Shown here: piece after piece, positions 24,765 through 64,000 of the stretch
Numbering within the stretch: the first letter of the stretch is position 1
Layout: every line of letters begins with the position of its first letter
Origin: Octopus vulgaris
Lineage: Eukaryota
NCBI GenBank assembly: GCA_951406725.2
Contig: OX597841.1
Location: 6,262,001-6,326,000, forward strand
Reading direction: 5' to 3'
DNA length: 64,000 bases
Notes under the pieces: model-generated
Told to the model about the DNA's origin: nothing
The model's database searches: none
What the model saw: only the letters and a program-made list of their open reading frames with translations
Translations under genes and position numbers: made by a program

Positions 24765-25598
24765 TTAATTCCTCGGTTCAAACTTTAGTCTTTTGAGCAA
24801 TGTTGACATAATCTGAGGCATTTGTTTACAGCTATCGTATTCCAGATTATCCAACTTTCTTAATTCCAAAGAGCCAACACGTTTACAGACAGCAGTTAAC
24901 AGTTTCATGATTTCATATTCAGTGCCATATTTCACCAAAACTTTACTTAAAGTTTGCATAAACCACGAACCCTTACGTTTATGAATGACTGACGGATATT
25001 TATCAGACGACGAATGGAAAACCAACATATCTGCCATGATTGGAATTTTCGGTGGCTTTCTTTCAGATTCTTCTTCCTCGGCATCTTTTCTTTCGACTCC
25101 ATCATCAATCTTGCTTCCACGACATGCTTCAATAAAGATTAATTTAGGTATTCCTGTCAGAGATGGACAGCGATCGGGTCTCAGGCAAGAAAGCAATTCG
25201 TCCAGCTCAACTTCACCCTCGTATCCACGTATAATATCGTTTCCTTTACCATGGCTCAGAATCGCACAAACAAAGCAATCAATATTAATTTTAGGATCGA
25301 TTTGGCCCAAATCTTCTAAAGTCCCGAGCATTTCTTTGGCTGTAAAATCTGTAAATACATTGATATCATCTTCATGAAATCCAAGATTTTCTAAAGCCTT
25401 TTTAAAATGTTTTGTGTCTTTCGATGAGCCGTGACGAGTTTCAAGTCTTGGGTCACTGAAATTTTTCACGTTGAAAATGTAGGCAACACCTCGCTTTTCA
25501 TGTGTCATGTCATATTTTTCGAAACATTTCATTAAATCTTCCTCGGTTGGTAAATCGAACTGGGCGCATGTACTACCATTTACATTTACAGTATCCAT
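24765..25598 (-). CDS. Caspase (peptidase C14A), short prodomain, intronless; SHG and EACRG (caspase A)
   Basis: 277 aa: RGVAYIFN, RHGSSKD, CFVCAILSHG, PKLIFIEACRG, PIMADML, GSWFMQTL, KQMPQIMSTLLK. Confidence 0.92.
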   Translation of the reverse strand: MDTVNVNGSTCAQFDLPTEEDLMKCFEKYDMTHEKRGVAYIFNVKNFSDPRLETRHGSSKDTKHFKKALENLGFHEDDINVFTDFTAKEMLGTLEDLGQIDPKINIDCFVCAILSHGKGNDIIRGYEGEVELDELLSCLRPDRCPSLTGIPKLIFIEACRGSKIDDGVERKDAEEEESERKPPKIPIMADMLVFHSSSDKYPSVIHKRKGSWFMQTLSKVLVKYGTEYEIMKLLTAVCKRVGSLELRKLDNLEYDSCKQMPQIMSTLLKRLKFEPRN

Positions 25599-29332: not shown

Positions 29333-30156
29333 TTACTTTCTCGGTTCAAACTTGAATTCTTTGCGCAACGTCGACATAATCTGAGGCATTTGTTTACAAC
29401 CATTGTATTCCGGATTATCCGAACTTTGGAATTCTAAAGAGGCAACATACTTAGAGACAGCGGTTAAAAGTGTCATCATTTCGTATTTAGTGCCATATTC
29501 CTTCAACATTTTACTTAAAGTTTGCATAAACCACGAACCTTTTTCATTATCCCTCATTGACGGATATTTATTTGATGACGAATGGAAAACCAACATATCT
29601 GCCATGATTGGAATTTTCGGTGGCTTTTTTTCAAATCCTAAACCGCAAGCATCTTTTTTTTCGACTCCAAGATCAGGCTTGCTTCCACGACATGCTTCAA
29701 TAAGATTAATTTAGGTATTCCTGTCAGAGATGGACAGCGATCGGGTCTCAGGCAAGAAAGCAATTCGTCTAGCTCAACTTCACCGTCGTATCCATATATG
29801 ATATCGTTTTCATCACCATGGCTCAGAATCGCACAAACAAAGCAGTCAATATTACCTTTAATATGAGAATCCTCTTCGTTAAAATCGTTCAAAACCGCGA
29901 GCATTTCTTTCGCTGTTACATCTGTACACACGTTGATATCATTCTCGTGAAATCCAAGATCTTTTAATGCGCTTTTAAAATCTTCTGCGTCTTTCGATGA
30001 GCCGAGACGAGTTGGAAGGTCCATGAAATTTTCATTGTTGAAGATGTAGGCAACACCTCGCTTTTTATGTGTCATATCATATTTATCGAAATATTTATCG
30101 TCCATAGTAGTCCCTGTGACAATGCCATCGCCTGAATCTACTTCCTGGTCTGACAT
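29333..30156 (-). pseudogene. Caspase B, EACRG type, split by a single 1-nt deletion at ~29702 (young pseudogene or sequence error)
   Basis: ORFs 29638..30156 and 29333..29605 join into PKLIFIEACRGSKPDLGVEKKDACGLGFEKKPPKIPIMAD when one base is restored (caspase A has AATAAAGATT, this copy AATAAGATT). Confidence 0.88.
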
Positions 30157-35318: not shown

Positions 35319-36214
35319 TTAAAATCGTGTGTAGTTAAGTTGAGGAAAACTATTTTCCCATTCAGCCTTTATTCGTAGCATATCCAGTTTTCTGATGATC
35401 GCTTCATGTTTTTGCTCTACTTTTCGGGAGAAACTTACTTAGGCGCAAAGGAACTTATCCAGTCCGAACAACATACGAAGTTTTGCACTTTTGGAAGGCA
35501 GGAAATTGCTTCGCAGGCAGACAAAATCACAGAAGACGCTTTCATTCACACTTCAGATATTTTAATAAATTACGAACTAACTTAAAAGCTAATGCATTTT
35601 ATCATTTCATTGCCAATTCAGAGACTTCACGTTAAGAAGAGACACATTTTATTAGGAAGTTATCCATAAGAGTTTTTAAAAATTAGGAGAGGATTTAAAA
35701 AAGCATTACGCAATGTGCTTCGATAGTTTAATGCAGTGAGAAAACAAAGAAAAATTATTTCTCTTTGGTAGACAAACTGGTACGAATCCAGCGATATATG
35801 AAAGCATATGAATAAAATAGCCTACATATTAATATTGTTCATATTTAGCAAGGTTAGTTCAATTTTCAGGGTGTAGAATTATTTTGAAATTTAGAATGTT
35901 CACAGAAGGCATTGGAGTTCTTAGTAAAATTTATGCTAGGAAATAGTTTTAGTTAAGCGTCTTAAAATGTTAGAGGATATTTATTAAAGCAAAATCAAGT
36001 TTGTAGTCATATTAGCAATTATTTAGTTGGAAATATTACCTTTATCTTTTCATCAATTTATATTGTTGGTATAATGTAAAAATAATGTAATTATTTGTAG
36101 ATATATGAATTCATAAAATATACTTCTTTTGCAATTGTAGATATATTCTTTTATATTCTTTTAATATAACATGCACATCCAACGGAATTTCTCACTGTAG
36201 AAAGCTGAAATATT

Positions 36215-37036
36215 TTATTTCTTCGCTTCAAACTTTAGTTCTTTAAGCAATGTCGACACAATCTGAGGCATCTGTTTAAGATGAGCCTTTTCCTCGTCAC
36301 TACTTTTAGTTTCTAAAGAGGCAACGTGGTTAGAGACAGCTGTTAAAAGTGTCAAGATTTCTTTTTTAGTGCCATATTTGGACAAAATTTTACTTAAACT
36401 TTGCATAAGCCACGATCCTTCAGTTTGCGTGAATGACTTATATCCATTATAACACGCATGAAAAACCAGCAGATCTGCCATAATTGGAAAATTGGTTTCA
36501 TTTACTTCTGCTTCAGGTTCATCGCTTATGTCGACTCCTTTATCTCTCTCTATTCCGCGACATGTTGCAGTAAAAATTAATTTAGGTACTCCACTTAAAG
36601 ATGGACATTTTTCGGGTGTCAGGTAAGAAAGCAATTCATGCAGTCCAACTGGAACACGGCCCTTTCCAAAAATCGTATCGTTTGTATGACCATGACTGAT
36701 AATTGCACAAACAAAGCAACCAATATTTTCGTAACGACCATCTTTGTTAAAATTCTTCAAAACTTCACTCATTTCACCGGTTGTTAAATTTGGCCAATCT
36801 ACGATACACCTTTCAGAAAATCCAAGTTTTATTAATGCCGCTTTAAAATCTTCTGTGTCTTGTGGTGAACCCTTAAGATCTTTAAGCCTTGGTTCTTCGA
36901 AACTTTCATTGTTGAAGATGTAGGCTACAAGTCGCTTGTTATTTATATCATATTTAGGGAAACATTTACTAAGATCTTCCTTAGATGGTGAATGGGGCTG
37001 ATCGCTTGTCCCAACGTTTTCATCTCCCTCTGCCAT
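36215..37036 (-). CDS. Caspase-fold protein C: SHG and ATCRG, atypical S1 pocket; intronless
   Basis: ORF with CFVCAIISHG, PKLIFTATCRG, PIMADLL, KQMPQIVSTLLK; ATG in ACCATGG context at 37036 (track start at 37045 is a TTG). Confidence 0.9.
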   Translation of the reverse strand: MAEGDENVGTSDQPHSPSKEDLSKCFPKYDINNKRLVAYIFNNESFEEPRLKDLKGSPQDTEDFKAALIKLGFSERCIVDWPNLTTGEMSEVLKNFNKDGRYENIGCFVCAIISHGHTNDTIFGKGRVPVGLHELLSYLTPEKCPSLSGVPKLIFTATCRGIERDKGVDISDEPEAEVNETNFPIMADLLVFHACYNGYKSFTQTEGSWLMQSLSKILSKYGTKKEILTLLTAVSNHVASLETKSSDEEKAHLKQMPQIVSTLLKELKFEAKK

Positions 37037-38434
37037 GGTTGTCAATGTAAGAATGTGATGAGCAGAACCTGGTTCCGTTTATTATATATTATTTCTGTCC
37101 TCTCAGATTGCTATCAATGCGCATGCGTTAACGAAATCCAACTCCTCGCTTCCAACTCAAAATATACAAATGCATCAGAAATTCTCACCGTAATAATCTG
37201 CGTTTCTATTTAAGGACCCCACACCTTAAGGGGTTACACGATAAAAACTATCTGAGGGCTGAACTCATAGGCGAGAGGGTTAAACGTTCAGATGCACGGT
37301 GTTCGATGATATCGATAGAATGGCTTTCTTCCCTTATTTGGCATTTAAAATTTCGGCAATGTTTCGTTGATGGTTTAAATCTTCGGCAATTTCCGTAAGG
37401 AAATTTTTATTTCTTTATTTTATTTACGTCATTTTGTAGGCGACATTTGCTTAGAAATCGTTGAGAGAGGGGAAAAGTGAACCACACCGAAGAGTGCGTG
37501 CGCAACCATTCACACACACACACACACACACACATACACACACACACATACACACACATACACACACACATACACACATACATACATACATACACACACA
37601 CGTACACATACAACCACTGACTTTTGTTGTGGATGAGTTGAATATTGAAACCCTCACTCGCAGAATGCATGAATGCATTTAGGTGTATGTGCGAGAAAAT
37701 GGCTGTGAATGTGTGTGTGTGTGCGTGTGTGTATGTGTGTGTGTGTGTGTGTGTATGTGTGTGTGTGCGCGCGTGCGTTTGAGTACGCGAGTGTATTTGC
37801 GGACTCGACCCTAGCGTCTGTTTCCATCCTTGCCCTCCCCACCGACTTCAAAGCAAATGTCGACTTTAAGAAAACATGAAATGATAGTAAATAAATAAAA
37901 CTATTTACGGAAATTTCAAAACAATAAGCTGCAAGAAAATAACAGGTAAATGACAAGATTGCCTGCCTTGCAGGTATAGAAAATTGCAGAAGCTTTCAGT
38001 CAAATTTAAATATTTTAAGAAATTAAGAACTGGCGTAAAAGCAAATACATTTTATTATTTCGCCGGCATTTCAAAGATTTAATCTTAATAACAAAATTTA
38101 TAAGGAGATCATCCACCAGTTTTTAAAATTAGCAGAAAAATTGGAAAAGATATTTAGAAATTGTGCTGAGATAGAATAATACAGTGAGTAAGAAAGAAAA
38201 AACAATTTCTCTTCGGCAGAGAAACTTTTACGAATGCAGCGGTATATGAAAGCGTATGAATAAAATGGCGCGCATATTAATATTGTTCATATTGTATATA
38301 AAAGAATGTTAGTCAATATTCAGAGTGAAGAGTTATTTTGAAATTTAGAATGTTCCTAGAGGGCACTGGTGTTCTTGGTAAAATTTACGTTAGGAAATAG
38401 CGTTAGTGAAACATCTCATTATATGATATTTCTG

Positions 38435-39385: not shown

Positions 39386-39619
39386 CAATTTGTAATTATA
39401 TTAACAATTATTTAGTTGGAAACATTACATTTATCTATTTATTAATTTCTGCTGTGGGAATAAAATGTGAAAATAGTGTTTTTTCTTTTTGTTGTAGATG
39501 TATGAATTCATAAAATATACTTCTCTTGCAACTGTAAATGCATAAGTTCCAAAAATATATTCTTTTAGTGTAATATTCACATCGAAAGGATATTCTCACC
39601 GTAAGAAGATATTCTCACG

Positions 39620-39850
39620 GTTCAATCTTTAGCTCTTTCAGTTATGTCATCATACGCTGGGGGTTTTGTTTCCAGCGATCTATTTCCGGATTACGACATC
39701 TGATATTCTGTATATTGATATACAAAAAGAAAATTCTGGCATTTTATATTCTGTATATGATATTAATGGATGTTTTTAGTGTCACTTCTGGTTTGAATCG
39801 CAGAACCATTCCATGTTTCGAAGATCAATTTACCTTCATTCTTATACGAC
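39620..39850 (-). pseudogene. Degenerate relic of a caspase small-subunit C-terminus
   Basis: Minus-strand translation RNPEIDRWKQNPQRMMT*LKELKIEP and [10 protein letters not shown] resemble DNPEYNGCKQMPQIMSTLRKEFKFEP and DETNGSCFMET. Confidence 0.6.
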
Positions 39851-40250: not shown

Positions 40251-41156
40251 TTATGTCGGCTTGCGCGGGCGCTTCTTTGAACTCCCATCCGTTTCCTCAA
40301 GTGGACTTCTGCTTCGCTTACGTGCTTTTGATGAAGCATTTCCCCTCCTCGGTTCAAACTTTAGCTGTTTGAGCAATGTCGACATAATCTGAGGCATTTG
40401 TTTCTCCGGTTCGGGATTGCGTTTAGTTTTGAATTCTTCAGAAGCAACATAGTAAGAGACAGCGGTTAAAAGTGTCAGGAGTTCACGTTCAGTGCCAAAT
40501 TCACTCAAAGCTTTACTTAATGTTTCCATAAAACACGAACCATTCGTTTCATCCCTGAAAGACGAATATTTATTATAGGAGGAATGAAAAACCAACAGAT
40601 CAGGCATAATTGGAATATTGGATAGCGTTTCATTCACTTCTGTTTCAGGGCCATCAGTTACACAGACTCCTTTATCAATCTCTTCTCCACGACATGCTTG
40701 AACAAAAATTAATTTGGGTACTCCACTTAAAGATGGACATTTAACGGGTGTCAGGCAAGAAAGCAAAGCATACAGTCCAACATCGCGGTCGTATGCACGT
40801 AACTGATCGTTTTCCCCACCATGGCTCATAATTGCACAAACAAAGCAACCAACTGGATTACGAGTTCCAACATTTTTGAAAGCATTGAGCACTTCATCGG
40901 CTGTGTTATCTTCAAAAACTGTGACATCCCGTTCAGAAAATCCAAGTTTTATTAATGCCGCTTTAAAAGCTTTTGTATCTTTTGATGAGCCTTCACGATA
41001 TAGAGAATGTTTGTTGAAATTTTCGTGGTTGAAGATGTAGGCTACAAGTCGCTTTTTATCATCCATATCATATTTAGGGAAACATTTACTAAGATCTTCC
41101 TTAGTTGGTGAATGGGGCTGATCGCTTGTCCCAACGTTTTCACCTCCATCTGCCAT
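40251..41156 (-). CDS. Caspase D: canonical SHG/QACRG effector-like caspase with basic C-terminal extension; intronless
   Basis: YREGSSKD, CFVCAIMSHG, PKLIFVQACRG, YSSFRDETNGS; ATG in ACCATGG context at 41156. Confidence 0.93.
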   Translation of the reverse strand: MADGGENVGTSDQPHSPTKEDLSKCFPKYDMDDKKRLVAYIFNHENFNKHSLYREGSSKDTKAFKAALIKLGFSERDVTVFEDNTADEVLNAFKNVGTRNPVGCFVCAIMSHGGENDQLRAYDRDVGLYALLSCLTPVKCPSLSGVPKLIFVQACRGEEIDKGVCVTDGPETEVNETLSNIPIMPDLLVFHSSYNKYSSFRDETNGSCFMETLSKALSEFGTERELLTLLTAVSYYVASEEFKTKRNPEPEKQMPQIMSTLLKQLKFEPRRGNASSKARKRSRSPLEETDGSSKKRPRKPT

Positions 41157-41645
41157 GGTTGTCAATGTAAGAATGTGATGAGCAGAACCTGGTTCCGTTT
41201 ATTATATATTATTTCTGTCCTCTCAGATTGCTATCAATGCGCATGCGTTAACGAAATCCAACTCCTCGCTTCCAACTCAAAATATACAAATGCATCAGAA
41301 ATTCTCACCGTAATAATCTGCGTTTCTATTTAAGGACTCCACACCTTAAGGGGTTACACGAAAAAATATCTGAGGGCTGAACTCATAGGCGAGAGGGTTA
41401 AACGTTCAGATGCACGGTGTTCGATGATATTGATAGAATGTCTTTCTTCCCTTATTTGGCATTTAAAATTTCGGCAATGTTTCGTTGATGGTTTAAATCT
41501 TCGGCAATTTCCGTAAGGAAATTTTTATTTCTTTATTTTATTTACGTCATTTTGTAGGCGACATTTGCTTGGAAATCGTTGAGGGAGGGGAAAAGTGAAC
41601 CACACCGAAGAGTGCGTGCGCAACCATTCACACACACACACGCAG

Positions 41646-43470: not shown

Positions 43471-44940
43471 TGCTTTCTAAGATGGCGTCGTCCACGGTGA
43501 TGATGCAGACGACAATGACATCATATATTGTACGTATGACATTTCAGCATTTCTTTAGTGCCACTTAGCTTTGTATTTCAAAACAGTTTCATTTTCCAAG
43601 GACAATTTACTTTCCCTGTAAAAATGACGGTCAATTGCATGATAAACGCGATCGTACATGTGTATGTGTTGTGTGTGGAAGTGTGTGTGTGTGTGTGTGT
43701 GCTTGGTTATGTGTTTGTGTGAAACCTGTTTGGTTTTCTTAAGTGGGATCGTGCTGGGATGGGTCTGGCCAGGGATTAAACTTGGAGTATTTTGCTGGGA
43801 TTAATCCAATGACTTAAAAGTAACATGTGGTTATGCCGCAGAAAAACGATTTTCCCTTCATTTAGCTGTTATTTCTAGCATGTTGAATTTTCTTTGAGGG
43901 GTCCATATTTTACATCTTCTGTTCGGGCGAAATCTACGCGGGCGCAAAGACACATGTTCAATATGTACAACATTCGGAATTTCTTAGTTTTTGTAAGAAG
44001 AAAAATGTAGGAGGAATGACATTGGATCTTTCTTTCTGAAAGTTTAAAATTGAAAAAATCTATCTTTCACATTCGAAATCTCCGTTGATTAAGCAAAAAA
44101 GTAAAATAAAAAACTGTTACCCCAAATCATAATCCTCGATAACAAAAAAATAGGAATGCCTGAGATATTTTTGTAAAATAGAGAGGGTTGAGATAGCGCC
44201 GAACAGCGCCGATATTTGAATCAAAAAAGGGTCACACGAAAATATATCTGAAGGCTGCCCTCATAGGTAAGAGGGTTAAACGGTCAGATGCACGGTGCAA
44301 AATATCCGTAAAGAGTCTTTCTTTCAGTATTTGGAATTTAAAAATTCGGCAATGTTTCGTTGAGGGTCTAAATCTTCGGTAATTTCCGTCACGAAGTTTT
44401 ATATATTTACTTTCTCGTTTCATGTCGTGTTGAAGGTGACATTTGCTTCGAAATCAGTGAGGGGGTGAAAGGTGGAATAGAATGGAGGGCGCGTGCGCAA
44501 TCGTACACAGATAGACACACGCACATACACACACACACACAAACACACACACACAGATCCTTTGAAATTTAGAATTTAACTATAAGGCACAGGTGTTCTT
44601 AATAAAGGCACAGGTGTTCTTAATAAATTTCATGCTGAGAAATACTTTTAGTTAAGTATCACGTTCATGATCATTTTAGCAATTATTTAGCTGAAAATAT
44701 TACATTTATCTATTTATCAATTTATGCTGTTGGTGTTACCTGTGGAAATAGTCATGTTATATATATGTATATATATATATGTATATATATATGTATCGAA
44801 ATCTGCGATGAGGAATCGGTTTCTGACTGAAGAACGAAGGCTTTGAATAACCCGTCTGTCTCTTATGTTCGTCCCTTCGTGTATTTCACGTTATTTATTT
44901 ATGTAAAGGTTTATTATATATATATCTATATCTATATCTA

Positions 44941-45007
<67 letters not shown>

Positions 45008-45012
45008 GTATG

Positions 45013-45106
<94 letters not shown>

Positions 45107-45253
45107 ATACATGAGGTTTTAAAATCTACTCCGTTGCATCTCTGGATGTGTGTGTTTCTAAACCATATTCTTTTCGTACAATATGCAGATGCGTCAGAAA
45201 TTCTCACCGTAAGAAGTTCCATATCTATTTAAGGGTCCCACACCAGAAATATT

Positions 45254-45752
45254 TTACTTCCTCTCTCAAAATTTTAGGTTTTTGAGCAAGGTTGATATAA
45301 TCTGAGGCATTCGCTTACAGCCATTATATTTTGAATTGGAATTCAAAAGAGGCAAGATAGTTTTAATCCGGATCTACCAGCATCGATTTCTTAATCTCAC
45401 GACCAGCTTGACTAAAGATTAATTTAATTATTCCCTATAATGATGGACAGCAATCGAGTCCCGGGCAAGAAAGCAACGCATCTAGCTTCACTTCATCGTC
45501 GTATCCATATATAACATCGTTTTCTTCCCCATGATACAGAATTGCACAAATAAAGCAATCAATAGTGATAACAGGATTATCTTCCTCAAATTCTTTCATC
45601 AAAAGACGAGGATTTAAAAGAGGACCTCAGCTTTTATACAGATGTAACAGTCGAACAAATGTTTGACTTCTGAATCTGTATAAAATCTGAGGTCATCATC
45701 TTGAAATCACGATTTTCTCAAGCCCTTTGAACATCTCCGTCTTTTGATGAAA
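45254..45752 (-). pseudogene. Truncated caspase pseudogene (left arm)
   Basis: Remnants SSKD, CFICAILYHG, LIFSQAGRE (Cys to Gly), MPQIISTLLK; stops, frameshifts and deletions. Confidence 0.85.
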
Positions 45753-48635
45753 GAATTTGAGCAAGATAATCTTGAAATCGTTTTTGATTGCTTTATTTGT
45801 GCAATTCCGCGATACACGAAGGACAGACGTAAAAGCTAATACATGGTATTATTTCGTTGTCATTTCAGAGATTATCCTCCAGAGATTATCCTCCGGAGTG
45901 AAACAAATACCCAAAGAATTGAAGAAACGTTACGCAATGATGCCCAGAAAGTACAATGCAGTGAGAAAACAAAGTAAAACAATTTCTGTTTCGCAGACAA
46001 TGTTTTACTAATCCAGCGATGTATGAGAGCACAGGAATAATATAACCTACATATTGATTTTCGTTAAATAAATATCCCCTAACATTTTAAGGTGCTGCTT
46101 CACTAAAACTATTTCCTCCCGTAAATTTTACTAAAGAACACCAGTGACTTATAGGTCCATTCTAAATTACAAAATAATCCTACATTCTGAAAATTGAACC
46201 AACATTGTTTTATATACAACTAAATATGAACAATATTAATATCTAGGCTATTTTATATATTTTTTTCAATTATTCTGCTATTCTTGTTAAATTCTTGTGG
46301 ATAATCTCCTAATAAAATTTCTCTCTTATAAATGTGAAGTCTCTGAATTGCCAATGAAATATCAAAATGTATCAGCTTTTTCGTTAGTTCTTAATTTATT
46401 TAGATATGTAAAGTGTGAATGAAAACTTCTGTAAATTTCTTTGCCTGCAGCGCAATGTTTCCATTATGGGTTCAATCTTGTCTTTATCTTGCGTCTAATT
46501 GCTCGACAATTTCCGTAAGTAGTTCGTTATGGAAATTGCCGACAACTGAAGGAAAGGCATTTTATCTTTTTCGGACACCTCGCATCTGAACGTTTAACCA
46601 TCTTACTTATGAGTTCAGCCTCCGGATATGTTTTTATGAAATCCTTTCTCTTTCAAATTTCGGCGGGTTTACCCTAACCCCAAATCCATATTCCTTTTCA
46701 TTTATTTCTTACTCTTTCCGATGTTTTAGTTATGGAAGATTACGATTTTGCCAAAAAAAGAAAAACAAAAAGAAATTTTCCAAAATAAAAATTTCTTTCC
46801 CACCCAAAAGTTTTTTTTATTTTACAATTTTTTAAAGAGGGGTTTTGTTTAAACTACGTCTACAGACACGGAGATAGAATCCGGAAGATTTATTCTTTTA
46901 GTTTCAAACTTCCAGAAAAAAGACCCTAAGTTGCTTCTCATATAATTTCCTTCTTTCCAAAAGTAGAAAACTCCTTTTATTAGACGGATTGGATGTGTTG
47001 CTTTGCGCCTGCGTAGAAGTAAAGTACGAACGTAGAAGAAATGTGGAAGCAAAATATGAATCCCTCACTGGAAATGTGGATATGGAAGAAATAAAAGCTG
47101 AAAATATTGTTTCTTCGCCTTAAATACACCTTTTTTAAAAATTCATTCGATTAATTTCGGCAAAGATCTCCAAATCCCTCCCAGGAGAATTCGACTTAAG
47201 AAAACTACGAAGATTTCATACAAACACAAACACACACGCCACACGCACACACTCATACATACACACACAGGCATACACACTCACGCACACACACAAACAC
47301 ACACACCACATGCACACACTCATATATACACACAAACACACACACCACACGCACACACTCATATATACACACACAGGCATACACACTCACGCACACACAC
47401 AAACACACACACCACACGCACACACTCATACATACACACACAGGCATACACACTCACGCACACACACAAACACACACCACACGCACACACTCATATATAC
47501 ACACACAGGCATACACACTCACGCACACACCACACACACACACTTATATATACACACACAGGCATACACACTCACGCACACACCACACGCACACACTTAT
47601 ATATACACACAGAGGAATACACACTCACTCACACACACAAACACACACACCACACGCACACACTCATACATACACACACAGGCATACACACTCACACACA
47701 CATACACACACACACAGACATTCATTCACAACACCCTTATATACGAGAGCAGTTTAACATACACTTGACCGTCATTTTACATTGAAATTGATTTGTCCTT
47801 GGAAACCGAAACTGCGTTGCGATTACAAAGTTGAAGTGGTCCCAAACACATCCTGTAATGTCATAAACCCAATGGATGATGTCAGTTCGAAGTGTTTCCT
47901 CAGTGTTATCCGGGGAATCGATTTACAGGAGAACACTCAGACGATAGAGGACATGCAACAAGTTCCGGACAGAATGGTAGAGCAAATTGTGGCTTTCATA
48001 ATGGAACGTGTGTGTTCTGGGGCCCATTATATTTACAGAGAAGTGCACCAGTTACTATATAATCTCCAAAGGCATCGCTTTATTCAGGCCACTTGAAGTA
48101 CTTTGATGGGGTTAATACAATGAATTAAAATTAAAATAATTTAAGAGAGAATTTATTTCGATATAGAATTTCAGTTTTTGCTTTCGTAGGAAATCTGTTT
48201 TTGTTTTATTTCGCAAATACTCGCGCGTACACTCACACTTAGCCGGAAGACAGACAGACAGACAGACATACACACGAACATACATGTATGTGTGTATGTA
48301 TGTGTGTGTGTATGTATGTATGCATGTATGTATGTATGTATGTATGTATGTATGTATGTATGTATGTATGTATGTATGTTTGTATGCATGTATGTATGTA
48401 TGTATGTTTGTATGTATGTATGTATGTATGTTTGTATGTATGTATGTATGTATGTCTGTATGTATGGAAGAAAAAACTATTTCCACAGGTAACACCAACA
48501 GCATAAATTGATAAATAGATAAATGTAATATTTTCAGCTAAATAATTGCTAATATGATTACAAATTGATATTGGTTTAATAAATATCCTCTAATTTTGCA
48601 AGATGCCTAACTAAACCCATTTCCTAGCATGAATT

Positions 48636-49322
48636 TTATTAAGAACACCTGTGCTTTTTTTAAAAACACCCCTGCCTTTATTAAGAACACCTGTGTCTTT
48701 ATTAAGAACACCTGTGTCTTTATTAAGAACAGATGTGCCTTTATTAAGAACAAACGTGCCTTTATTAAGAACACCTGTGTCCTTATTAAGAACACCTGTG
48801 TCTTTATTAAGAACACCTGTGTCTTTATTAAGAACAGATGTGCCTTTATTAAGAACAAACGTGCCTTTATTAAGAACACCTGTGTCCTTATTAAGAACAC
48901 CTGTGTCTTTATTAAGAACACCTGTGTCCTTATTAAGAACACCTGTGTCTTTATTAAGAACATCTGCATCTTTATTAAGAACACCTGTGCCTTTATTAAG
49001 AACACCCGTGTCTTTATAAAGAACAAATGTGCCTTTATTAAGAACACCTGTGCCTTTATTAAGAACACCTCTGCATTTATTAAGAACACCTCTGCATTTA
49101 TTAAGAACACCCGTGTCCTTATTAAGAACACCTGTGCCTTTATTAAGAACATCTGTGTCTTTATTAAGAACAAATGTGCCTTTATTAAGAACACCTGTGT
49201 CCTTATTAAGAACACCTGTGTCTTTATTAAGAACACCTGTGTCCTTATTAAGAACACCTGTGTCTTTATTAAGAACATCTGCATCTTTATTAAGAACACC
49301 TCTGCATTTATTAAGAACACCA
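48636..49322. repeat. 21-bp minisatellite, ~33 units (TTATTAAGAACACCTGTGYCT)
   Basis: Direct tandem periodicity. Confidence 0.95.
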
Positions 49323-49699
49323 GTTATATTCTAAATTTCAAAATAATTCTTCACTCTGAAACTTGAACTAACAATTAAACAAGTCCAGAAGTTAGGTTAA
49401 ATATATATACAAGTAGAAGTACCATGAATTCCCTTTCTATAAACTGGCAAACAGTTCTGTGAATGCTTCACCGGCCAACGCCGGGTATTAAGTCTAGTAT
49501 GCAACTAAATGCGTACAATATTAATATGGATACTTTCGTAAATCGCTGGATTCGTAAAACATTGTCTGCGAAAGAGAAATTGATTTATTTTTCTTTTCTC
49601 ACAGCATTGTATTATGTCAGCAGCATTCCGTAAAGTTCTTTTTTTTTTTCAGTTCTCCTGCTATTTTTTTACTCTCCTGGAAAATCTCTCAATGATATT

Positions 49700-49957
49700 T
49701 TAGTTAGTTAGTTAATTTTTTGGCTCAAAAAGCAAAAAAGCAAGGCCATGTAGGGGGACATGGAGTTATGTACAGGGTGGTGTTCATGCAAAGAGTTCAG
49801 GCCATTTCTGGTCAAGGGAGGCTTTGAACCGAGCGGTCGTCGGCATCTTCACTATCTCGTCCGGCAGCTTATTCCACGGATCCGCAACCCGGACGGAGAA
49901 AGCCCCTCTCCTTCGATTCAGATGAAATCATCGCAGATAGAGCTGTTTGTCTGTTAT
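49700..49957 (-). mobile_element. CR1-like LINE 3' end with (AACT)n tail (mirror copy ~56935-57190 +)
   Basis: Translation AFSVRVADPWNKLPDEIVKMPTTARFKASLD. Confidence 0.7.
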
Positions 49958-50369
49958 TAACACAAAGTCCCTGAAATGATGACGAAATAATAAAATGTAT
50001 CAGCTTTTATGTTAGTTTTTATGGTCTTAAAATATTTCAAGCTTGAAGAATGGCTCTCATGTATTTCCGTTCGACTGCAACGCCATCTTTCGATGACGTT
50101 TTCAATCTTGTGATTTCCGTATTGTTTTCTTGCAGCTGATTGTTCGGCAATTTCCGTAAGTAATTTCTATTCATTTTCCATCATTTCATGTCCTGTTCAA
50201 TTCGAGTTTGCTTTGATGTCGGTGAGGGAGGCAAAATGAGATATTGAGGCTAGCAATCACTACACGTATATACTCACACACACACACGATCAAACACACG
50301 TACACACGTACACACACACACGTGCACTTGTATCACACACTCGTTACGTGTATATGAAATATAATTGGT

Positions 50370-51086
<717 letters not shown>

Positions 51087-51464: not shown

Positions 51465-51735
51465 GTGACCGGAATGTAACGGCCGAAAACAAATAATCTC
51501 ATTACACAAAGAACTAAAGTTTGAACCGAGGAGCTATGATATTTCAGATGTAATAACCTCAAGTGAACATGGATCTTCTGACGGTGACAATTTCTGATTC
51601 ATGCGCACATCTTGAGTTGAAAGCCAGGGGTCGGATTTCGTTAACGCATGCGCATTGATAGCAATCTGAGAGGACTGAAAGAATATATAATACACGGAAC
51701 TAAGTTCAGCTCATCACATTCTTACATTGACTACC

Positions 51736-52497
51736 ATGGACACTGAAAGGGCAAACATTGGGACAAGCGATCAGCCCCATTCACCAACTAAGGAAGATAT
51801 TAGTAAATGTTTCGCTAAATATGATATGGAAAATAAAACACGTGTAGCTTATATAGTCGACCCTAAGTGTTCAACAAACGATGCAGCAGATTTTAGAAGG
51901 GCATTAGAACGTATTGGATTTAAATGTGAACCTATTTATAACGATTTTGAAACAATGTGCAAAGATTTGGAAAAGTTTAACGAACCTAAACTTAAAAATA
52001 AAATTGGTTGCTTTATTTGTGCAGTTATAAACCAAGATCACGAGAAAGCTGGATCTGACGTAATTGCAGTAACTTCTAAGCTGACAGCAGCCGATAAGTG
52101 TAAATCTTTAACAGGAGTTCCTAAAGCAGCCGATAAGTGTAAATCTTTAACAGGAGTTCCTAAATTAATTTTTATTGAAGCAGTTGAAATAGTTAAAAGA
52201 TTCCACGCAGTGGATGCACCTGGAACAGACAATATGCCTAAAATCCCAATAACGGCAGATCTGTTGGTTTTTCGTTCGTGGCGGAAAGAATGTCTGCCAA
52301 TCCACGGCAAACATGAAGCTTCGCCATTTATGAAAATATTAACCAAAAATTTGAATGAGTATGGCACTAAATATGAAATACTGAAGCTATTAACCATTAC
52401 TTCTGGTGAATTCCAAAGTTCGGAGAATTCGAAAAATAATGGCTCTGAAAGAAAGACTCAGATTGCGTCGACATTGCTCAAAGAACTAATGTTTTGA
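51736..52497 (+). CDS. Catalytically dead caspase homologue E (no His, no Cys), open frame
   Basis: CFICAVINQD replaces SHG; PKLIFIEAVEI replaces QACRG; rest aligns with paralogues; ATG in ACCATGG context at 51736; in-frame 39-bp duplication at 52087-52164. Confidence 0.75.
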   Translation: MDTERANIGTSDQPHSPTKEDISKCFAKYDMENKTRVAYIVDPKCSTNDAADFRRALERIGFKCEPIYNDFETMCKDLEKFNEPKLKNKIGCFICAVINQDHEKAGSDVIAVTSKLTAADKCKSLTGVPKAADKCKSLTGVPKLIFIEAVEIVKRFHAVDAPGTDNMPKIPITADLLVFRSWRKECLPIHGKHEASPFMKILTKNLNEYGTKYEILKLLTITSGEFQSSENSKNNGSERKTQIASTLLKELMF

Positions 52498-53274
52498 ACC
52501 AGCGAACTAAAATATTTCCGGTGTGGGATCCTTAAATAGAAATGCGGCTTCTTATGGTGAGAATTTCTGATGCATCTACATATTATATGAAAAGAATATA
52601 TTTTAGATATTCATACATCGAAAACTACAAGAATTTTAAGAATTCATATATCTACAAATAAATGCACAATTTCACGTGCAATACCCACAGCAGAAATTGA
52701 TAAATCGATAAATACAATATTTTCAACTAAATGATTGCTAATATGATTACAAACTTGATTTTAGTTTAATATCTTCGAACATTTTAAGATGCTTCACTAA
52801 ACCTATTTCCTACCATAAATTTTACTAAGAACACCACGTGACTTATTGGTACATTCTAAATATCAAAATAATTCTACACTCTGAAAATTGGACTAACATT
52901 CTTTTATATACAACTAAATATGAACAATATTAATACGTAGACTATTTTATTCACATGCTTTCATATATCGCTGGATTCCTAAAAGGTTGTCCGCCAAACA
53001 GAAATTATTTTCTTTCTTTTCTTATTGCATTATATCTCAGTACAATTGCGTAACGTTTCTTTCTTCCAATAATTCTGATATTTTTTTTTTACTCTGGTGG
53101 TTAATCTCTCCTTAAAATTTGTCTTTTATTAACATATTGTCTCTGAATTGCCAACAACATAATAAAATCTATCAGCTTGTACGTTGTTTGTTAATTAATT
53201 TAAAACATATTAAGTGTAAATGAATGTTTCGTCTGTAATTTTGTTTGCCTGGAACGCAATATTTCCATGATGTT

Positions 53275-56097: not shown

Positions 56098-56299
56098 GGT
56101 CCCGGGTTGAGTCGGGGTTAACCACAGTAAATAAGGTACTCAATACATAGCAGAGTAAATTAATTTATTATATAGAAGCTTTGGTGATGGTTATAAGGGC
56201 ACTGGGGTGTGCTAGGATATGTAGGTCCCGGGTTGAGTCGGGGTTAACCACAGTAAATAAGGTACTCAATACATAGCAGAGTAAATTACTTTATTATAT

Positions 56300-56372
<73 letters not shown>

Positions 56373-57564
56373 CATATATACGACAGGCTTCTTTCAGTTT
56401 CCGTCTACCAAATCCACTCACAAGGCATTGGTCGGCCCGGGGTTATAGCAGAAGACACTTGCCCATGATGCCACGAAGTGGGACTGAACCCAGAACCATG
56501 TGGTTGGTTAGCCACTCACCAATTATATTTCATATACACGTAACGAGTGTGTGATACAAGTGCACGTGTGTGTGTGTACGTGTGTACGTGTGTTTGATCG
56601 TGTGTGTGTGTGAGTATATACGTGTAGTGATTGCTAGCCTCAATATCTCATTTTGCCTCCCTCACTGACATCAAAGCAAACTCGAATTGAACAGGACATG
56701 AAATGATGGAAAATGAATAGAAATTACTTACGGAAATTGCCGAACAATCAGCTGCAAGAAAACGATACGGAAATCACAAGATTGAAAACGTCATCGAAAG
56801 ATGGCGTTGCAGTCGAACGGAAATACATGAGAAGCCATTCTTCAAGCTTGAAATATTTTAAGACCATAAAAACTAACATAAAAGCTGATACATTTTATTA
56901 TTTCGTCATCATTTCAGGGACTTTGTGTTAATAACAGACAAACAGCTCTATCTGCGACAATTTCATCTGAATCGAAGGAGAGGGGGCTTTCTCCGTCCGG
57001 GTTGCGGATCCGTGGAATAAGCTGCCGGACGAGATAGTGAAGATGCCGACGACCGCTCGGTTCAAAGCCTCCCTTGACCAGAAATGGCCTGAACTCTTTG
57101 CATAAACACCACCCTGTACATAACTTCATGTCCCCCTACATGGCCTTGCTTTTTTGCTTTTTGAGCCAAAAAATTAACTAACTAACTAAAATATCATTGA
57201 GAGATTTTCCAGGAGAGTAAAAAATAGCAGGAGAACTGAAAAAAAAAAGAACTTTACGGAATGCTGCTGACATAATACAATGCTGTGAGAAAAGAAAAAT
57301 AAATCAATTTCTCTTTCGCAGACAATGTTTTACGAATCCAGCGTTTTACGAAAGTATCCATATTAATATTGTACGCATTTAGTTGCATACTAGACTTAAT
57401 ACCCGGCGTTGGCCGGTGAAGGATTCACAGAACTGTTTGCCAGTTTATAGAAAGGGAATTCATGGTACTTCTGCTTGTATATATATTTAACCTAACTTCT
57501 GGACTTGTTTAATTGTTAGTTCAAGTTTCAGAGTGAAGAATTATTTTGAAATTTAGAATATAAC

Positions 57565-58750
57565 TGGTGTTCTTAATAAAGGCACAGTTGTTCTTAATAA
57601 AGGCACAAGTGTTCTTAATAAAGGCACAGGTGTTCTTAATAAAGGCACAGGTGTTCTTAATAAAGGCACAGGTGTTCTTAATAAAGACACAGGTGTTCTT
57701 AATAAGGACACAGGTGTTCTTAATAAAGACACAGGTGTTCTTAATAAAGGCACAAGTGTTCTTAATAAAGGCACAGGTGTTCTTAATAAAGGCACAGGTG
57801 TTCTTAATAAAGGCACAGGTGTTCTTAATAAGGACACAGGTGTTCTTAATAAGGACACAGGTGTTCTTAATAAAGACACAGGTGTTCTTAATAAAGGCAC
57901 AAGTGTTCTTAATAAAGGCACAGGTGTTCTTAATAAAGGCACAGGTGTTCTTAATAAAGGCACAGGTGTTCTTAATAAAGACACAGGTGTTCTTAATAAG
58001 GACACAGGTGTTCTTAATAAAGGCACATTTGTTCTTAATAAAGGCACATTTGTTCTTAATAAAGACACAGATGTTCTTAATAAAGGCACAGGTGTTCTTA
58101 ATAAGGGTGTTCTTAATAAAGATGCAGATGTTCTTAATAAAGACACAGGTGTTCTTAATAAGGACACAGGTGTTCTTAATAAAGACACAGGTGTTCTTAA
58201 TAAGGACACAGGTGTTCTTAATAAAGGCACATTTGTTCTTAATAAAGGCACATTTGTTCTTAATAAAGACACAGGTGTTCTTAATAAAGGCACAGGTGTT
58301 CTTAATAAGGACACAGGTGTTCTTAATAAAGGCACGTTTGTTCTTAATAAAGGCACATCTGTTCTTAATAAAGACACAGGTGTTCTTAATAAAGACACAG
58401 GTGTTCTTAATAAATGCAGAGGTGTTCTTAATAAAGGCACAGGTGTTCTTAATAAAGGCACATTTGTTCTTTATAAAGACACAGGTGTTCTTAATAAAGG
58501 CACAGGTGTTCTTAATAAAGATGCAGATGATCTTAATAAAGACACGGGTGTTCTTAATAAGGACACAGGTGTTCTTAATAAAGACACAGGTGTTCTTAAT
58601 AAGGACACAGGTGTTCTTAATAAAGGAACATTTGTTCTTAATAAAGGCACAGGTGTTCTTAATAAAGACACAGGTGTTCTTAATAAAGGCACAGGTGTTC
58701 TAATTAAGGCAGGGGTGTTTTTAATAAAGGCACAGGTATTCTTAATAAAA
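57565..58750. repeat. 21-bp minisatellite, ~56 units (mirror of 48636..49322)
   Basis: GGTGTTCTTAATAAAGGCACA tandem. Confidence 0.95.
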
Positions 58751-61700
58751 TTCATGCTAGGAAATGGGTTTAGTTAGGCATCTTGCAAAATTAGAGGATA
58801 TTTATTAAACCAATATCAATTTGTAATCATTTTAGCAATTATTTAGCTGAAAATATTACATTTATCTATTTATCAATTTATGCTGTTGGTGTTACCTGTG
58901 GAAATAGTTTTTTCTTCCATACATACAGACATACATACATACATACATACATACATACATACATACATACATACATACATACAAACATACATACATACAT
59001 ACATACATACATACATACATACATACATACATACATACATACATACATACATACATACATACATACACACATACATACATACACCCATACATACATACAT
59101 ACATACATACACACATACATACATACATACATACATACAAACATACATACATACATACATACAAACATACATACATACATACAAACATACATACATACAT
59201 ACATACATACATACATACATGCATGCATACACACACACATACATACACACATACATGTATGTTCGTGTGTATGTCTGTCTGTCTGTCTGTCTTCCGGCTA
59301 AGTGTGAGTGTACGCGCGAGTATTTGCGAAATAAAACAAAAACAGATTTCCTACGAAAGCAAAAACTGAAATTCTATATCGAAATAAATTCTCTCTTAAA
59401 TTATTTTAATTTTAATTCATTGTATTAACCCCATCAAAGTACTTCAAGTGGCCTGAATAAAGCGATGCCTTTGGAGATTATATAGTAACTGGTGCACTTC
59501 TCTGTAAATATAATGGGCCCCAGAACACACACGTTCCATTATGAAAGCCACAATTTGCTCTACCATTCTGTCCGGAACTTGTTGCATGTCCCCTATCGTC
59601 TGAGTGTTCTCCTGTAAATCGATCCCCTGGAAAACACTGAGGAAACACTTCGAACTGACATCATCCATTGGGTCTATGACATTACAGGATGTGTTTGGGA
59701 CCACTTCAGCTTTGTAATCGCAACGCAGTTTCGGTTTCCAAGGACAAATCAATTTCAATGTAAAATGACGGTCAAGTGTATGTTAAACTGCTCTCGTATA
59801 TAAGGGTGTTGTGAATGAATGTCTCTGTGTGTGTGTATGTGTGTGTGAGTGTGTGTATGTCTGTGTGTGTGTGCGTGAGTGTGTATGCCTGTGTGTGTAT
59901 GTATGAGTGTGTGCGTGTGGTGTGTGTGTGTTTGTGTGTGTGCGTGAGTGTGTATGCCTGTGTGTGTATATATGAGTGTGTGCGTGTGGTGTGTGTGCGT
60001 GTGGTGTGTGTTTGTGTGTGTGCGTGAGTGTGTGTGCCTGTGTGTGTATGTATGAGTGTGTGCGTGTGTGTGTGTGTATTTGTGTGTGTGCTTGAGTGTG
60101 TATGTATGAGTGCGTGCGTGTGGTGTGTGTGTTTGTGTGTGTGCGTGAGTGTGTATGCATGTGTGTGAATATATGAGTGTGTGCGTGTGGTGTGTGTGTT
60201 TGTGTGTGTGCGTGAATGTGTATTCCTGTGTGTGTATATATGAGTGTGTGCGTGTGGTGTGTGTGTGTGTGAGTGTGTATGCCTGTGTGTGTATGTATGA
60301 GTGTGTGCGTGTGTGTGTATATATGAGTGTGTGCGTGAATGTGTATGCCTGTGTGTGTATATATAAGTGTGTGCGTGTGTGTGTATATGAGTGTGTGCGT
60401 GTGGTGTGTGTGTGTGTGTGTGTGCGTGAGTGTGTTTGCCTGTGTGTGTATGTATGAGTGTGTGCGTGTGTGTGTATATATGAGTGTGTGCGTGAATGTG
60501 TATGCCTGTGTGTGTATATATAAGTGTGTGCGTGTGTGTGTATATATGAGTGTGTGCATGTGGTGTGTGTGTGTTTGTGTGTGCACGTGAGTGTGTATGC
60601 CTGTGTGTGTATGAATGAGTGTGTGCGTGTGGTGTGTGTGTTTGTGTTTGTATGAAATCTTCGTAGTTTTCTTAAGTCGAATTCTCCTAGGAGGGATTTG
60701 GAGATCTTTGCCGAAATTAATCGAATGAATTTTAAAAAAGGTGTATTTAGGGCGAAGAAACAATATTTTCAGCTTTTATTTCTTCCATATCCACATTTCC
60801 AGGGAGGGATTCATATTTTGCTTCCACATTTCTTCTACGTTCGTACTTTACTTCTACGCAGGCGCAAAGCAACACATCCAATCCGTCTAACAAAAGGAGT
60901 TTTCTACTTTTGGAAAGAAGGAAATTATATGAGAAGCAACTTAGGGTCTTTTTTCTGGAAGTTTGAAACTAAAAGAATAAATCTTCCGGATTCTATCTCC
61001 GTGTCTGTAGACGTAGTTTAAACAAAACCCCTCTTTCAAAAATTGTAAAATAAAAAAACTTTTGGGTGGGAAGGAAGAAATTTTTATTTTGGAAAATTTC
61101 TTTTTGTTTTTCTTTTGGCAAAATCGTAATCTTCCATAACTAAAACATCGGAAAGAGTAAGAAATAAATGAAAAGGAATATGGATTTGGGGTTAGGGTAA
61201 ACCCGCCGAAATTTGAAACAGAAAGGATTTCATAAAAACATATCCGGAGGCTGAACTCATAAGTAAGATGGTTAAACGTTCAGATGCGAGGTGTCCGAAA
61301 AAGATAAAATGCCTTTCCTTCAGTTGTCGGCAATTTCCGTAACGAACTACTTACGGAAATTGTCGAGCAATTAGACGCAAGGAAAGGACAAGATTGAACC
61401 CATAATGGAAACATTGCGCTGCAGGCAAAGAAATTTACAGAAGTTTTCATTCACACTTTACATATCTAAATAAATTAAGAACTAACGAAAAAGCTGATAC
61501 ATTTTGATATTTCATTGGCAATTCAGAGACTTCACATTTATAAGAGAGAAATTTTATTAGGAGATTATCCACAAGAATTTAACAAGAATAGCAGAATAAT
61601 TGAAAAAAATATTACGCAATGGTGCTGAGATAGTTTAATGCAGTGAGAGAAGAAAGATAAAAAATTTCTCTTTGGCAGAGAAACTGTTACGAATCCAGCG

Positions 61701-62222
61701 ATATAGGAAAATACATGAATAAAATAGCCTAGATATTAATATTGTTCATATTTAGTTGTATATAAAACAATGTTGGTTCAATTTTCAGAATGTAGGATTA
61801 TTTTGTAATTTAGAATGGACCTATAAGTCACTGGTGTTCTTTAGTAAAATTTACGGGAGGAAATAGTTTTAGTGAAGCAGCACCTTAAAATGTTAGGGGA
61901 TATTTATTTAACGAAAATCAATATGTAGGTTATATTATTCCTGTGCTCTCATACATCGCTGGATTAGTAAAACATTGTCTGCGAAACAGAAATTGTTTTA
62001 CTTTGTTTTCTCACTGCATTGTACTTTCTGGGCATCATTGTGTAACGTTTCTTCAATTCTTTGGGTATTTGTTTCACTCCGGAGGATAATCTCTGGAGGA
62101 TAATCTCTGAAATGACAACGAAATAATACCATGTATTAGCTTTTACGTCTGTCCTTCGTGTATCGCGGAATTGCACAAATAAAGCAATCAAAAACGATTT
62201 CAAGATTATCTTGCTCAAATTC

Positions 62223-62721
62223 TTTCATCAAAAGACGGAGATGTTCAAAGGGCTTGAGAAAATCTTGATTTCAAGATGATGACCTCAGATTTTATACAGA
62301 TTCAGAAGTCAAACATTTGTTCGACTGTTACATCTGTATAAAAGCTGAGGTCCTCTTTTTAAATCCTCGTCTTTTGATGAAAGAATTTGAGGAAGATCAT
62401 CCTGTTATCATTATTGATTGCTTTATTTGTGCAATTCTGTATCATGGGGCAGAAAACGATGTTATATATGGATACGACGATGAAGTGAAGCTAGATGCGT
62501 TGCTTTCTTGCCCGGGACTCGATTGCTGTCCATCATTATAGGGAATAATTAAATTAATCTTTAGTCAAGCTGGTCGTGAGATTAAGAAATCGATGCTGGT
62601 AGATCCGGATTAAAACTATCTTGCCTCTCTTGAATTCCAATTCAAAATATAATGGCTGTAAGCTAATGCCTCAGATTATATCAACCTTGCTCAAAAACCG
62701 AAAATTTGAGAGAGGAAGTAA
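62223..62721 (+). pseudogene. Truncated caspase pseudogene (right arm)
   Basis: ORF 62317..62541 gives IDCFICAILYHGAENDVIYGYDDEVKLDALLSC, then a stop; LIFSQAGRE follows. Confidence 0.85.
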
Positions 62722-62868
62722 AATATTTCTGGTGTGGGACCCTTAAATAGATATGGAACTTCTTACGGTGAGAATTTCTGACGCATCTGCATATTGTACG
62801 AAAAGAATATGGTTTAGAAACACACACATCCAGAGATGCAACGGAGTAGATTTTAAAACCTCATGTAT

Positions 62869-63013
<145 letters not shown>

Positions 63014-64000
63014 TAGATATAGATATATATATAATAAACCTTTACATAAATAAATAACGTGAAATACACGAAGGGACGAACATAAGAGACAGACGGGTCA
63101 TTCAAAGCCTTCGTTCTTCAGTCAGAAACCGATTCCTCATCGCAGATTTCGATACATATATATATACATATATATATATACATATATATAACATGACTAT
63201 TTCCACAGGTAACACCAACAGCATAAATTGATAAATAGATAAATGTAATATTTTCAGCTAAATAATTGCTAAAATGATCATGAACGTGATACTTAACTAA
63301 AAGTATTTCTCAGCATGAATTTTATTAAGAACACCTGTGCCTTTATTAAGAACACCTGTGCCTTATAGTTAAATTCTAAATTTCAAAAGGATCTGTGTGT
63401 GTGTGTTTGTGTGTGTGTGTGTATGTGCGTGTGTCTATCTGTGTACGATTGCGCACGCGCCCTCCATTCTATTCCACCTTTCACCCCCCTCACTGATTTC
63501 GAAGCAAATGTCACCTTCAACACGACATGAAACGAGAAAGTAAATATATAAAACTTCGTGACGGAAATTACCGAAGATTTAGACCCTCAACGAAACATTG
63601 CCGAATTTTTAAATTCCAAATACTGAAAGAAAGACTCTTTACGGATATTTTGCACCGTGTATCTGACCGTTTAACCCTCTTACCTATGAGGGCAGCCTTC
63701 AGATATATTTTCGTGTGACCCTTTTTTGATTCAAATATCGGCGCAATTCGGTTGTACCCCTATCTCAACTCTCTCTATTTTTCAAAAATATCTCAGGCAT
63801 TCCTATTTTTTTGTTATCGAGGATTATGATTTGGGGTAACAGTTTTTTATTTTACTTTTTTGCTTAATCAACGGAGATTTCGAATGTGAAAGATAGATTT
63901 TTTCAATTTTAAACTTTCAGAAAGAAAGATCCAATGTCATTCCTCCTACATTTTTCTTCTTACAAAAACTAAGAAATTCCGAATGTTGTACATATTGAAC

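Follow-up and report, generated by a model that had tools for sequence, protein, structure and literature searches.

The window, by which we mean the whole 64,000-nucleotide stretch of Octopus vulgaris DNA that was analyzed, contains caspase genes A to D on the minus strand and caspase gene E on the plus strand, the latter in a 5.7-kb spacer between the arms of an inverted repeat (Table 1). This arrangement agrees with the initial annotation, which had placed E in the spacer of a palindrome and on the strand opposite that of A to D. The arms differ by 0.7 to 0.94% outside microsatellites, near the reported heterozygosity of 1.22%, as would be expected if the inverted duplication is very recent or if one haplotype was duplicated falsely; a genuine duplication could have flipped E. 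Each arm carries a copy of a decayed caspase pseudogene, disrupted by frameshifts and stops as well as by a large deletion. The neighboring pseudogenes had been described as carrying such stops and frameshifts, which holds for the two arm copies; in caspase B a 1-nt deletion is the only such lesion.

The intact neighbors A, C, and D match Pfam at 1 × 10−41 to 1 × 10−50 (140 to 170 bits). In caspase B the sole break is the loss of one nucleotide from a run of T, and the branch dN/dS is 0.46; from its sequence, B would not be an old pseudogene but a null allele of very recent origin or the product of an assembly error. Caspase C, for which an identical protein is in the database, has ATCRG in place of QACRG (loss of the S1 Gln), as does its O. 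sinensis counterpart, possibly reflecting altered specificity or weak activity. Caspase D has a C-terminal extension of ~28 aa (40251 to 40345, minus strand) with two basic, NLS-like clusters around a possible EETD/G caspase site, and about 550 bp downstream of this gene is a remnant of a caspase 3′ end (39492 to 39699, minus strand).

The ~700-bp 3′ flanks of the paralogs (e.g., 52520 to 53260, 28612 to 29330, and 35505 to 36200) differ by 15 to 18%, and the neutral-scale divergence of the coding regions, at 0.24 to 0.58 per site, is above that of these flanks. The low flank divergence would reflect either a constrained 3′ UTR element or homogenization. Orphan copies of the 3′ flank lie in the arms (46038 to 46514 and 48476 to 50130), one of them split by a 21-bp minisatellite. 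Elsewhere in the window are two single-ORF tandem C2H2 zinc-finger genes (1299 to 2741 and 7883 to 8836, plus strand; read from the translation), which we take to be typical of the octopus expansion, and two ORFs (14326 to 14784 and 20375 to 20833, plus strand) that are 96.6% identical to each other and presumably resemble truncated Tc1/mariner transposase N termini. Two O. vulgaris database models, P0175 and P0177, fuse adjacent caspase genes, indicating that the caspase cluster continues past the window and has been misannotated.

Table 1. Caspase genes, repeat arms, and features of caspase E in the window
Feature	Coordinates	Strand	Basis
Caspase A, dyad intact (SHG/EACRG)	24765..25598	-	ORF, Pfam
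Caspase B, one 1-nt deletion before the catalytic Cys	29336..30156	-	Alignment
Caspase C, dyad intact (SHG/ATCRG)	36215..37036	-	ORF, Pfam
Caspase D, dyad intact (SHG/QACRG); chain in dimer model	40251..41156	-	ORF, Pfam
Left arm of inverted repeat	43956..50598		Self-comparison
Decayed caspase pseudogene, left arm; internal control for neutral decay	45141..45809	-	Alignment
Relic of another caspase unit's 3′ end and flank, directly upstream of E promoter	51469..51602	+	Alignment
Promoter and first ~35 codons of E, 83 to 89% identical to C/D; probable gene-conversion tract	51581..51861	+	Alignment
Upstream motif CGCATGCGCA, common to A, B, C, and D	51645..51654	+	Sequence
Caspase E ORF, 253 aa, intronless, short prodomain, catalytically dead	51736..52497	+	ORF, Pfam, alignment
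Gln100 in place of catalytic His (SHG to NQD)	52033..52035	+	Alignment
Perfect 39-bp tandem duplication; low-confidence loop in model	52086..52163	+	Sequence, AF2
Val150 in place of catalytic Cys (QACRG to EAVEI, with 3-aa deletion)	52183..52185	+	Alignment
Linker Asp160, candidate processing site; invariant in 11/11 aligned cluster proteins, including 4 dead	52213..52215	+	Alignment
C-terminal strand, codons 240 to 250, predicted dimer interface	52453..52485	+	D-E model
Extra T giving early TGA; old E-P-A-N end continues out of frame	52490..52511	+	Sequence, alignment
Candidate poly(A) signal AATAAA	52657..52662	+	Sequence
Right arm of inverted repeat, reaching window end	56291..64000		Self-comparison
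Mirror copy of decayed pseudogene, right arm	62166..62834	+	Alignment

Loss of catalytic residues and origin of the promoter in caspase E

The caspase E frame contains no internal stop across its 253 codons. Its sole Pfam domain is Peptidase_C14 (PF00656; E = 4.2 × 10−13; 49.9 bits, gathering cutoff of 21.4), with an N terminus of ~28 aa and no recruitment domain. The His-Cys dyad of active caspases (SHG and QACxG) is replaced in the alignments by NQD and EAVEI, in line with the reported loss of both residues; H102 lies two residues past the His site, is off-register, and is missing from both O. bimaculoides copies. At the S1-pocket Arg/Gln/Arg columns, which are 96 to 100% conserved among 78 distant caspases, E has P/E/H or a deletion, and three further segments are absent: the L1 loop, of about 11 aa; ~8 aa following the His site; and 5 residues of helix 5. 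The initial annotation was right that the deletions and the 39-bp duplication preserve the frame over ~253 codons, as the open ORF and the alignment attest, and that an extra T removes the last 4 aa (EPAN); in calling this T the only lesion, it understated the losses in the S1 pocket, L1 loop, post-His segment, and helix 5. The duplication amounts to a net gain of 42 nt, in frame, and is missing from O. sinensis and run X10, while the O. sinensis ortholog has the same shortened C-terminal end. A compensated frameshift was considered as the cause of the Cys loss and rejected, given that the O. bimaculoides copies read EPSR and GPSR with the same 3-aa gap, which fits a Cys-to-Ser change plus an in-frame deletion.

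A Kozak ATG, an upstream motif, and the HAVD-A linker had been listed as retained, and all are present: the start context is ACCATGG, the motif is CGCATGCGCA, which we take to be NRF-1-like, and the residue following Asp160 of the linker is Ala in O. vulgaris and O. sinensis and Gly in O. bimaculoides. The ATG and motif are nevertheless weak evidence, and we rejected their retention as a sign of function, because they lie in the tract resembling C and D (Table 1; the remaining coding part is 36 to 73% identical to C/D) and the motif also precedes the frameshifted caspase B. Both probably reflect gene conversion from C/D, which may give E the same expression pattern as these genes. The N termini of the O. 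bimaculoides E copies are likewise similar to that of their own neighbor. In E, C, and D alike, the promoter begins with a remnant of a caspase 3′ end or flank (51469 to 51602; 37161 to 37225 and 41281 to 41345, minus strand), a mark of head-to-tail duplication, and the upstream regions of C and D are about 100% identical (gene conversion).

Ancestry of caspase E and retention of its reading frame

Orthologs of E were identified in O. sinensis (XP_029653346.2; 196/209 residues identical, 93.8%) and O. bimaculoides (XP_014782016.1, 136/237, 57.4%; XP_014782015.1, 120/214, 56.1%). All three are dead, open, and colinear with E, and all four clade members share three deletions: one in the L1 loop, one after the His site, and one of 3 aa at the Cys motif. 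In a tree of 40 selected rows, from which near-duplicates, fragments, and fused models were left out, the E clade received support of 100/100 and was sister to the active C/D group (100/99), indicating that E arose by duplication of an active caspase. Since the Cys is missing in 4/4 members and the His in 3/4, loss of the Cys likely came first, predating the split of O. vulgaris and O. bimaculoides; this split, spanned by the E clade, is dated to about 34 million years in the available text of PMC10700109. The accessions of the E orthologs run consecutively with those of C/D-type caspases, and the contigs that carry them are equal in length, which suggests that they sit in the same caspase cluster in their own genomes. 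No more E-clade members were returned by a profile search of 1.84 billion representatives, a set in which relatives above 50% identity are collapsed (next match, 165 bits versus 423). The O. vulgaris E protein was absent from protein searches and from an exact look-up of the protein collection, and the O. sinensis model begins at Met31. The tree branch of E is 0.45 long versus about 0.17 for A, and those of the active C/D orthologs are equally long; E differs from its O. sinensis ortholog at 13/209 residues, compared to 1/277 for active A and 8 to 10% for active C and D. Specific to the O. vulgaris/O. sinensis copy is the loss of the 5 aa of helix 5 (a dimer helix) and of the last 4 aa, and O. 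vulgaris E has a 14-aa insertion.

Judged from the sequences compared here, the open frame of E is not due to chance. When codons were evolved neutrally in simulation down to the observed identity of 59% (88 substitutions per branch), both branches were stop-free in 5/5,000 runs and one branch in 183/5,000. Flank alignments, the pairs of which are not independent of each other, gave 0.138 indels per substitution, with 17/73 indels being multiples of 3; at these rates about 9 frameshifts are expected per branch, and the chance of none is about 1 × 10−4 per branch. Counted by eye in protein alignments, where compensated frameshift pairs are invisible (pairwise coding-DNA alignment was too noisy), about 8/9 E-clade indels were in frame (binomial P of 6 × 10−5 to 1 × 10−3), and the sole exception lies within the last codons. 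The accumulating stops and frameshifts of a decayed pseudogene were not seen: across the four proteins, the orthologs among which came from a protein search able to find open frames only, there was no internal stop or frameshift and one terminal frameshift. Frame-disrupting alleles in other species, which the initial annotation had named as evidence against a functional E, likewise did not appear, in that 3/3 orthologs are open and no frameshift was present in E-specific coding contigs among the matches listed (from 4 of the 10 runs that contain E). Across 51801 to 52924, run X10 differed by 22 substitutions and a single indel, the missing 42-nt duplication, while run X9 had an additional 12-nt in-frame deletion in E. 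Contig pieces identical to E covered 52462 to 52924 in run X1 and 51801 to 51987 and 52351 to 52575 in run X2, other parts being uncovered; none of the runs is registered as RNA, that X1 and X2 are RNA is a guess only, and contig pieces cannot show transcription, nor can their depth rank genes.

The residues that persist in E are distributed as in active caspases. Identity between E and the O. bimaculoides ortholog P0002 was found at 73/105 family-conserved columns (defined on 78 distant active caspases) versus 52/106 variable columns (odds ratio [OR] of 2.37; P = 0.002); the same test on active pairs gave ORs of 2.0 to 3.6, and the neutral null reached the bias of E in 9/5,000 runs. Core elements still present include PKLIF, P-x-x-AD-x-L, S-x-F, LLT, and S-x-L, and the loss of catalytic and specificity residues from a retained core is the pattern of a pseudoenzyme. 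The branch dN/dS, a check proposed in the initial annotation, came to 0.92 and is thus not below 1 (P = 0.76 versus 1; P = 0.47 versus the background of 0.74; codon model of 203 codons from caspases A to E), although the test has little power since the whole caspase cluster evolves fast. Maintenance by selection is therefore indicated by the frame and scaffold tests but not by overall dN/dS. At the level of individual runs, X9 differed from E at 14/553 coding versus at most 2/753 flank letters (P = 4 × 10−4; P = 0.19 within the single shared contig) and X10 at 8/284 versus 2/340 (P = 0.049), and among the matches listed 4/4 E-specific coding differences were nonsynonymous. However, in every paralog the flanks are better conserved than the coding DNA, so this coding excess is not specific to E. 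We conclude that a dead caspase with a kept frame is well supported by the open orthologs, the stop and indel simulations, and the constraint on fold columns, and that over most of its history E has very probably been maintained as a protein-coding gene.

Predicted fold and a candidate role in caspase dimers

With 59 sequences, AF2 predicted a caspase fold for E (pLDDT of 80.9; pTM of 0.81); with a shallow 11-sequence alignment the model was poor (pLDDT of 54). The best Foldseek matches of the model were caspase-6, -3, and -7 (E of about 1 × 10−12; TM of about 0.65). Caspases are active as dimers, whose chains meet at the C-terminal strand; in the effector type, the N-terminal loop of one partner's small subunit completes the active site of the other. 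A complex model of D with E scored 0.82, whereas none of the 3 controls scored above 0.00; agreement between runs covered at least 72% of contacts, and partner pLDDT was at least 76 (alignments were not used), with predicted contacts at residues 214 to 228 and 240 to 250 of E. The mark for a dimer was reached by 51/78 solved and 2/108 mismatched pairs (71/105 and 2/126 for eukaryotes), and close cousins pass in 10/12 cases, such that the test does not discriminate among family members. Since caspase dimers are already solved and cousins pass, the D-E score shows compatibility or likeness, possibly through the model's memory of solved dimers, rather than binding. The predicted interface residues were not significantly more conserved than others (18/25 versus 111/203, P = 0.07; 16/25 versus 101/180, P = 0.30), and the KIPITAD segment was invariant in 4/4 E-clade members.

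Taken with the kept frame, these predictions are consistent with a role for E as a noncutting dimer partner that would raise the activation threshold of the neighboring active caspases, a reading to which we assign a probability of about 0.45. E would probably be expressed alongside C and D through its converted promoter and would pair with an active neighbor by the C-terminal strand and helix 5, as in the predicted heterodimer. As long as it is uncleaved, E would dilute the active sites and hold back the loop that completes the partner, whereas cleavage at the kept Asp160 would free KIPITAD and permit half-site activity, the mechanism by which cFLIP-L works with caspase-8. We infer the sign of this effect on the active partner to be damping; a hypothetical inhibition of caspase D by E would be compatible with the kept dimer strand and the dimer model.

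Other readings would give E a different role or none. Least credible, and extremely unlikely, is proteolysis through other residues: H102 lies near the His site and E has several Cys residues, but H102 is missing from both O. bimaculoides copies, no Cys lies at or adjoining the nucleophile position in 4/4 members, and neither the oxyanion Gly nor the S1 Arg/Gln/Arg is retained. That E has been a neutral pseudogene since the Cys loss, with a frame left open by luck, is very improbable and largely refuted; a dN/dS of about 1 and the true pseudogenes of the same cluster would fit, whereas four open copies in three species, simulated frequencies of 5/5,000 for stops, about 1 × 10−4 per branch for frameshifts, and 9/5,000 for the conserved-column bias, and the stops, frameshifts, and large deletion in the real pseudogenes adjoining E do not. 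We also consider it unlikely that E was functional in the Octopus ancestor and is now relaxing to a pseudogene in the O. vulgaris/O. sinensis lineage. The helix-5 deletion, C-terminal frameshift, 42-nt insertion, and 12-nt deletion allele would all be expected of such a gene, as would the long branch (0.45 versus about 0.17 for A) with its dN/dS of 0.92, the failure to find the O. vulgaris protein in the protein collection, and an O. sinensis model that begins at Met31. Nevertheless, the frame stayed open along the whole of that branch (183/5,000 from stops; about 9 frameshifts expected), the newest indels (42 and 12 nt) are in frame with the one frameshift confined to the last codons, and the branches of active C/D orthologs are equally long.

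Alternatively, E may be functional under diversifying selection, either as a sink for host IAPs and pathogen caspase inhibitors or as an enhancer of its paralogs, which we regard as unlikely. The frame and fold evidence is the same as for a dimer partner, and a branch dN/dS near 1 together with an open frame would suit it well. The excess of coding over flank differences in X9 (P = 4 × 10−4; 0.19 in the single contig) and X10 (P = 0.049), with 4/4 nonsynonymous changes among the matches listed, would also be expected, except that flanks outconserve coding DNA in every paralog. Active-site inhibitors such as p35, CrmA, and the XIAP linker engage the caspase substrate groove, which is dismantled in E, and a sink is further disfavored by the lack of a conserved IAP-binding N terminus after Asp160 (Ala in O. 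vulgaris/O. sinensis, Gly in O. bimaculoides). For an enhancer there is precedent in Aedes, where CASPS18 boosts CASPS19 according to the available text of PMC4840389.

Caspase E among inactive caspases

Vertebrate cFLIP-L has a dead caspase domain, heterodimerizes with an active caspase, contains a cleavable linker Asp, and damps or permits activity; E shares the dead domain and the linker Asp. While cFLIP carries tandem DEDs and acts on the initiator caspase-8 at the DISC, E has an N terminus of ~28 aa, no DEDs (Peptidase_C14 being its only Pfam domain), and short, effector-type descent. A weak search for longer E-type forms returned one protein, P0177, which reads as two fused active caspases. 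In sequence and predicted fold E is like the effector caspases-3, -6, and -7 (Peptidase C14A), from which it differs in having no dyad, no S1 pocket, and shortened L1 and post-His loops. Caenorhabditis elegans CSP-3 is essentially a small subunit only, whereas E has both subunits. Like E, CSP-3 and CSP-2 are caspase homologs; they are reported to inhibit CED-3 zymogen activation, CSP-3 having no active site (available text of PMC3591282). The initial annotation had cited such precedents as established, and they are less settled than this: according to the same text, the antiapoptotic role of CSP-3 was not replicated by Denning et al. (2013), and CSP-2 has a predicted VCCRG active site. The dipteran caspase-like decoys are inactive duplicates that regulate their paralogs (PMC7768685 and PMC3141678, in the parts available, citing Bryant et al. 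2010), and E resembles those of Aedes aegypti (CASPS18/CASPS19) as an inactive effector-type duplicate with critical residues substituted. E differs from these decoys in that deletions and substitutions have removed its entire substrate pocket, its dN/dS is about 1, and several octopus lineages, E among them, were inactivated separately; moreover, CASPS18 is considered an enhancer of CASPS19 rather than an inhibitor (PMC4840389, available text), while the role proposed for E is damping.

Other octopus caspases are also dead. Two Cys-to-Ser clades (QASRG/EASRG) have kept the His (P0009/P0012/P0170 and P0016/P0020/P0172); each is found in all three species, both are on another chromosome, and their members are annotated as ordinary caspases, as are those of a His-less EASRG clade (P0021/P0022/P0045, of which P0021 and P0022 are in the tree). 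The two Cys-to-Ser clades show 81.5% and 78.2% identity between O. vulgaris and O. bimaculoides, versus 75 to 79% for active pairs. Dead sequences make up 12/28 octopus-clade rows of the tree. A single clade of all dead octopus caspases was rejected (p-AU = 0.003), as was a clade of E with P0021/P0022 (p-AU = 0.026), the constrained groups having been named after the first tree was seen. From these topologies, octopus caspases appear to have lost activity independently on two or more occasions, probably three or four. It is an unlikely prospect, if a real one, that this repertoire constitutes a coexpressed, fast-evolving combinatorial dimer code, promoter matched by conversion, that would set death or immune thresholds without a recruitment domain.

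Within the open-access literature (subscription papers were outside the scope), we found no paper on octopus pseudocaspases, and an accession search returned none. O. sinensis is covered by a survey of squid caspases (PMC9389742), whose available text does not mention these dead copies, and an ink-proteome supplement (PMC10142993) held no match to the accessions or to "caspase." An octopus skin-mucus proteome lists several caspases, with no accessions in the main text, and may bear on E expression (PMC11431876, available text). E, a real and probably maintained pseudocaspase, joins the known caspase-like decoys, and the E clade and other dead octopus lineages appear to be undescribed in the open-access literature. 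Databases call the E orthologs "caspase-1/-7(-like)" even though they have no catalytic Cys, and octopus transcriptome or proteome studies in which caspases serve as markers of death may include regulators in their counts. If they are true partners, the dead octopus lineages would form a natural series of independent pseudocaspase origins, which could show if the effect of a dead effector-type caspase on its paralog is to damp or to boost it, a question contested for CSP-3 and CASPS18.
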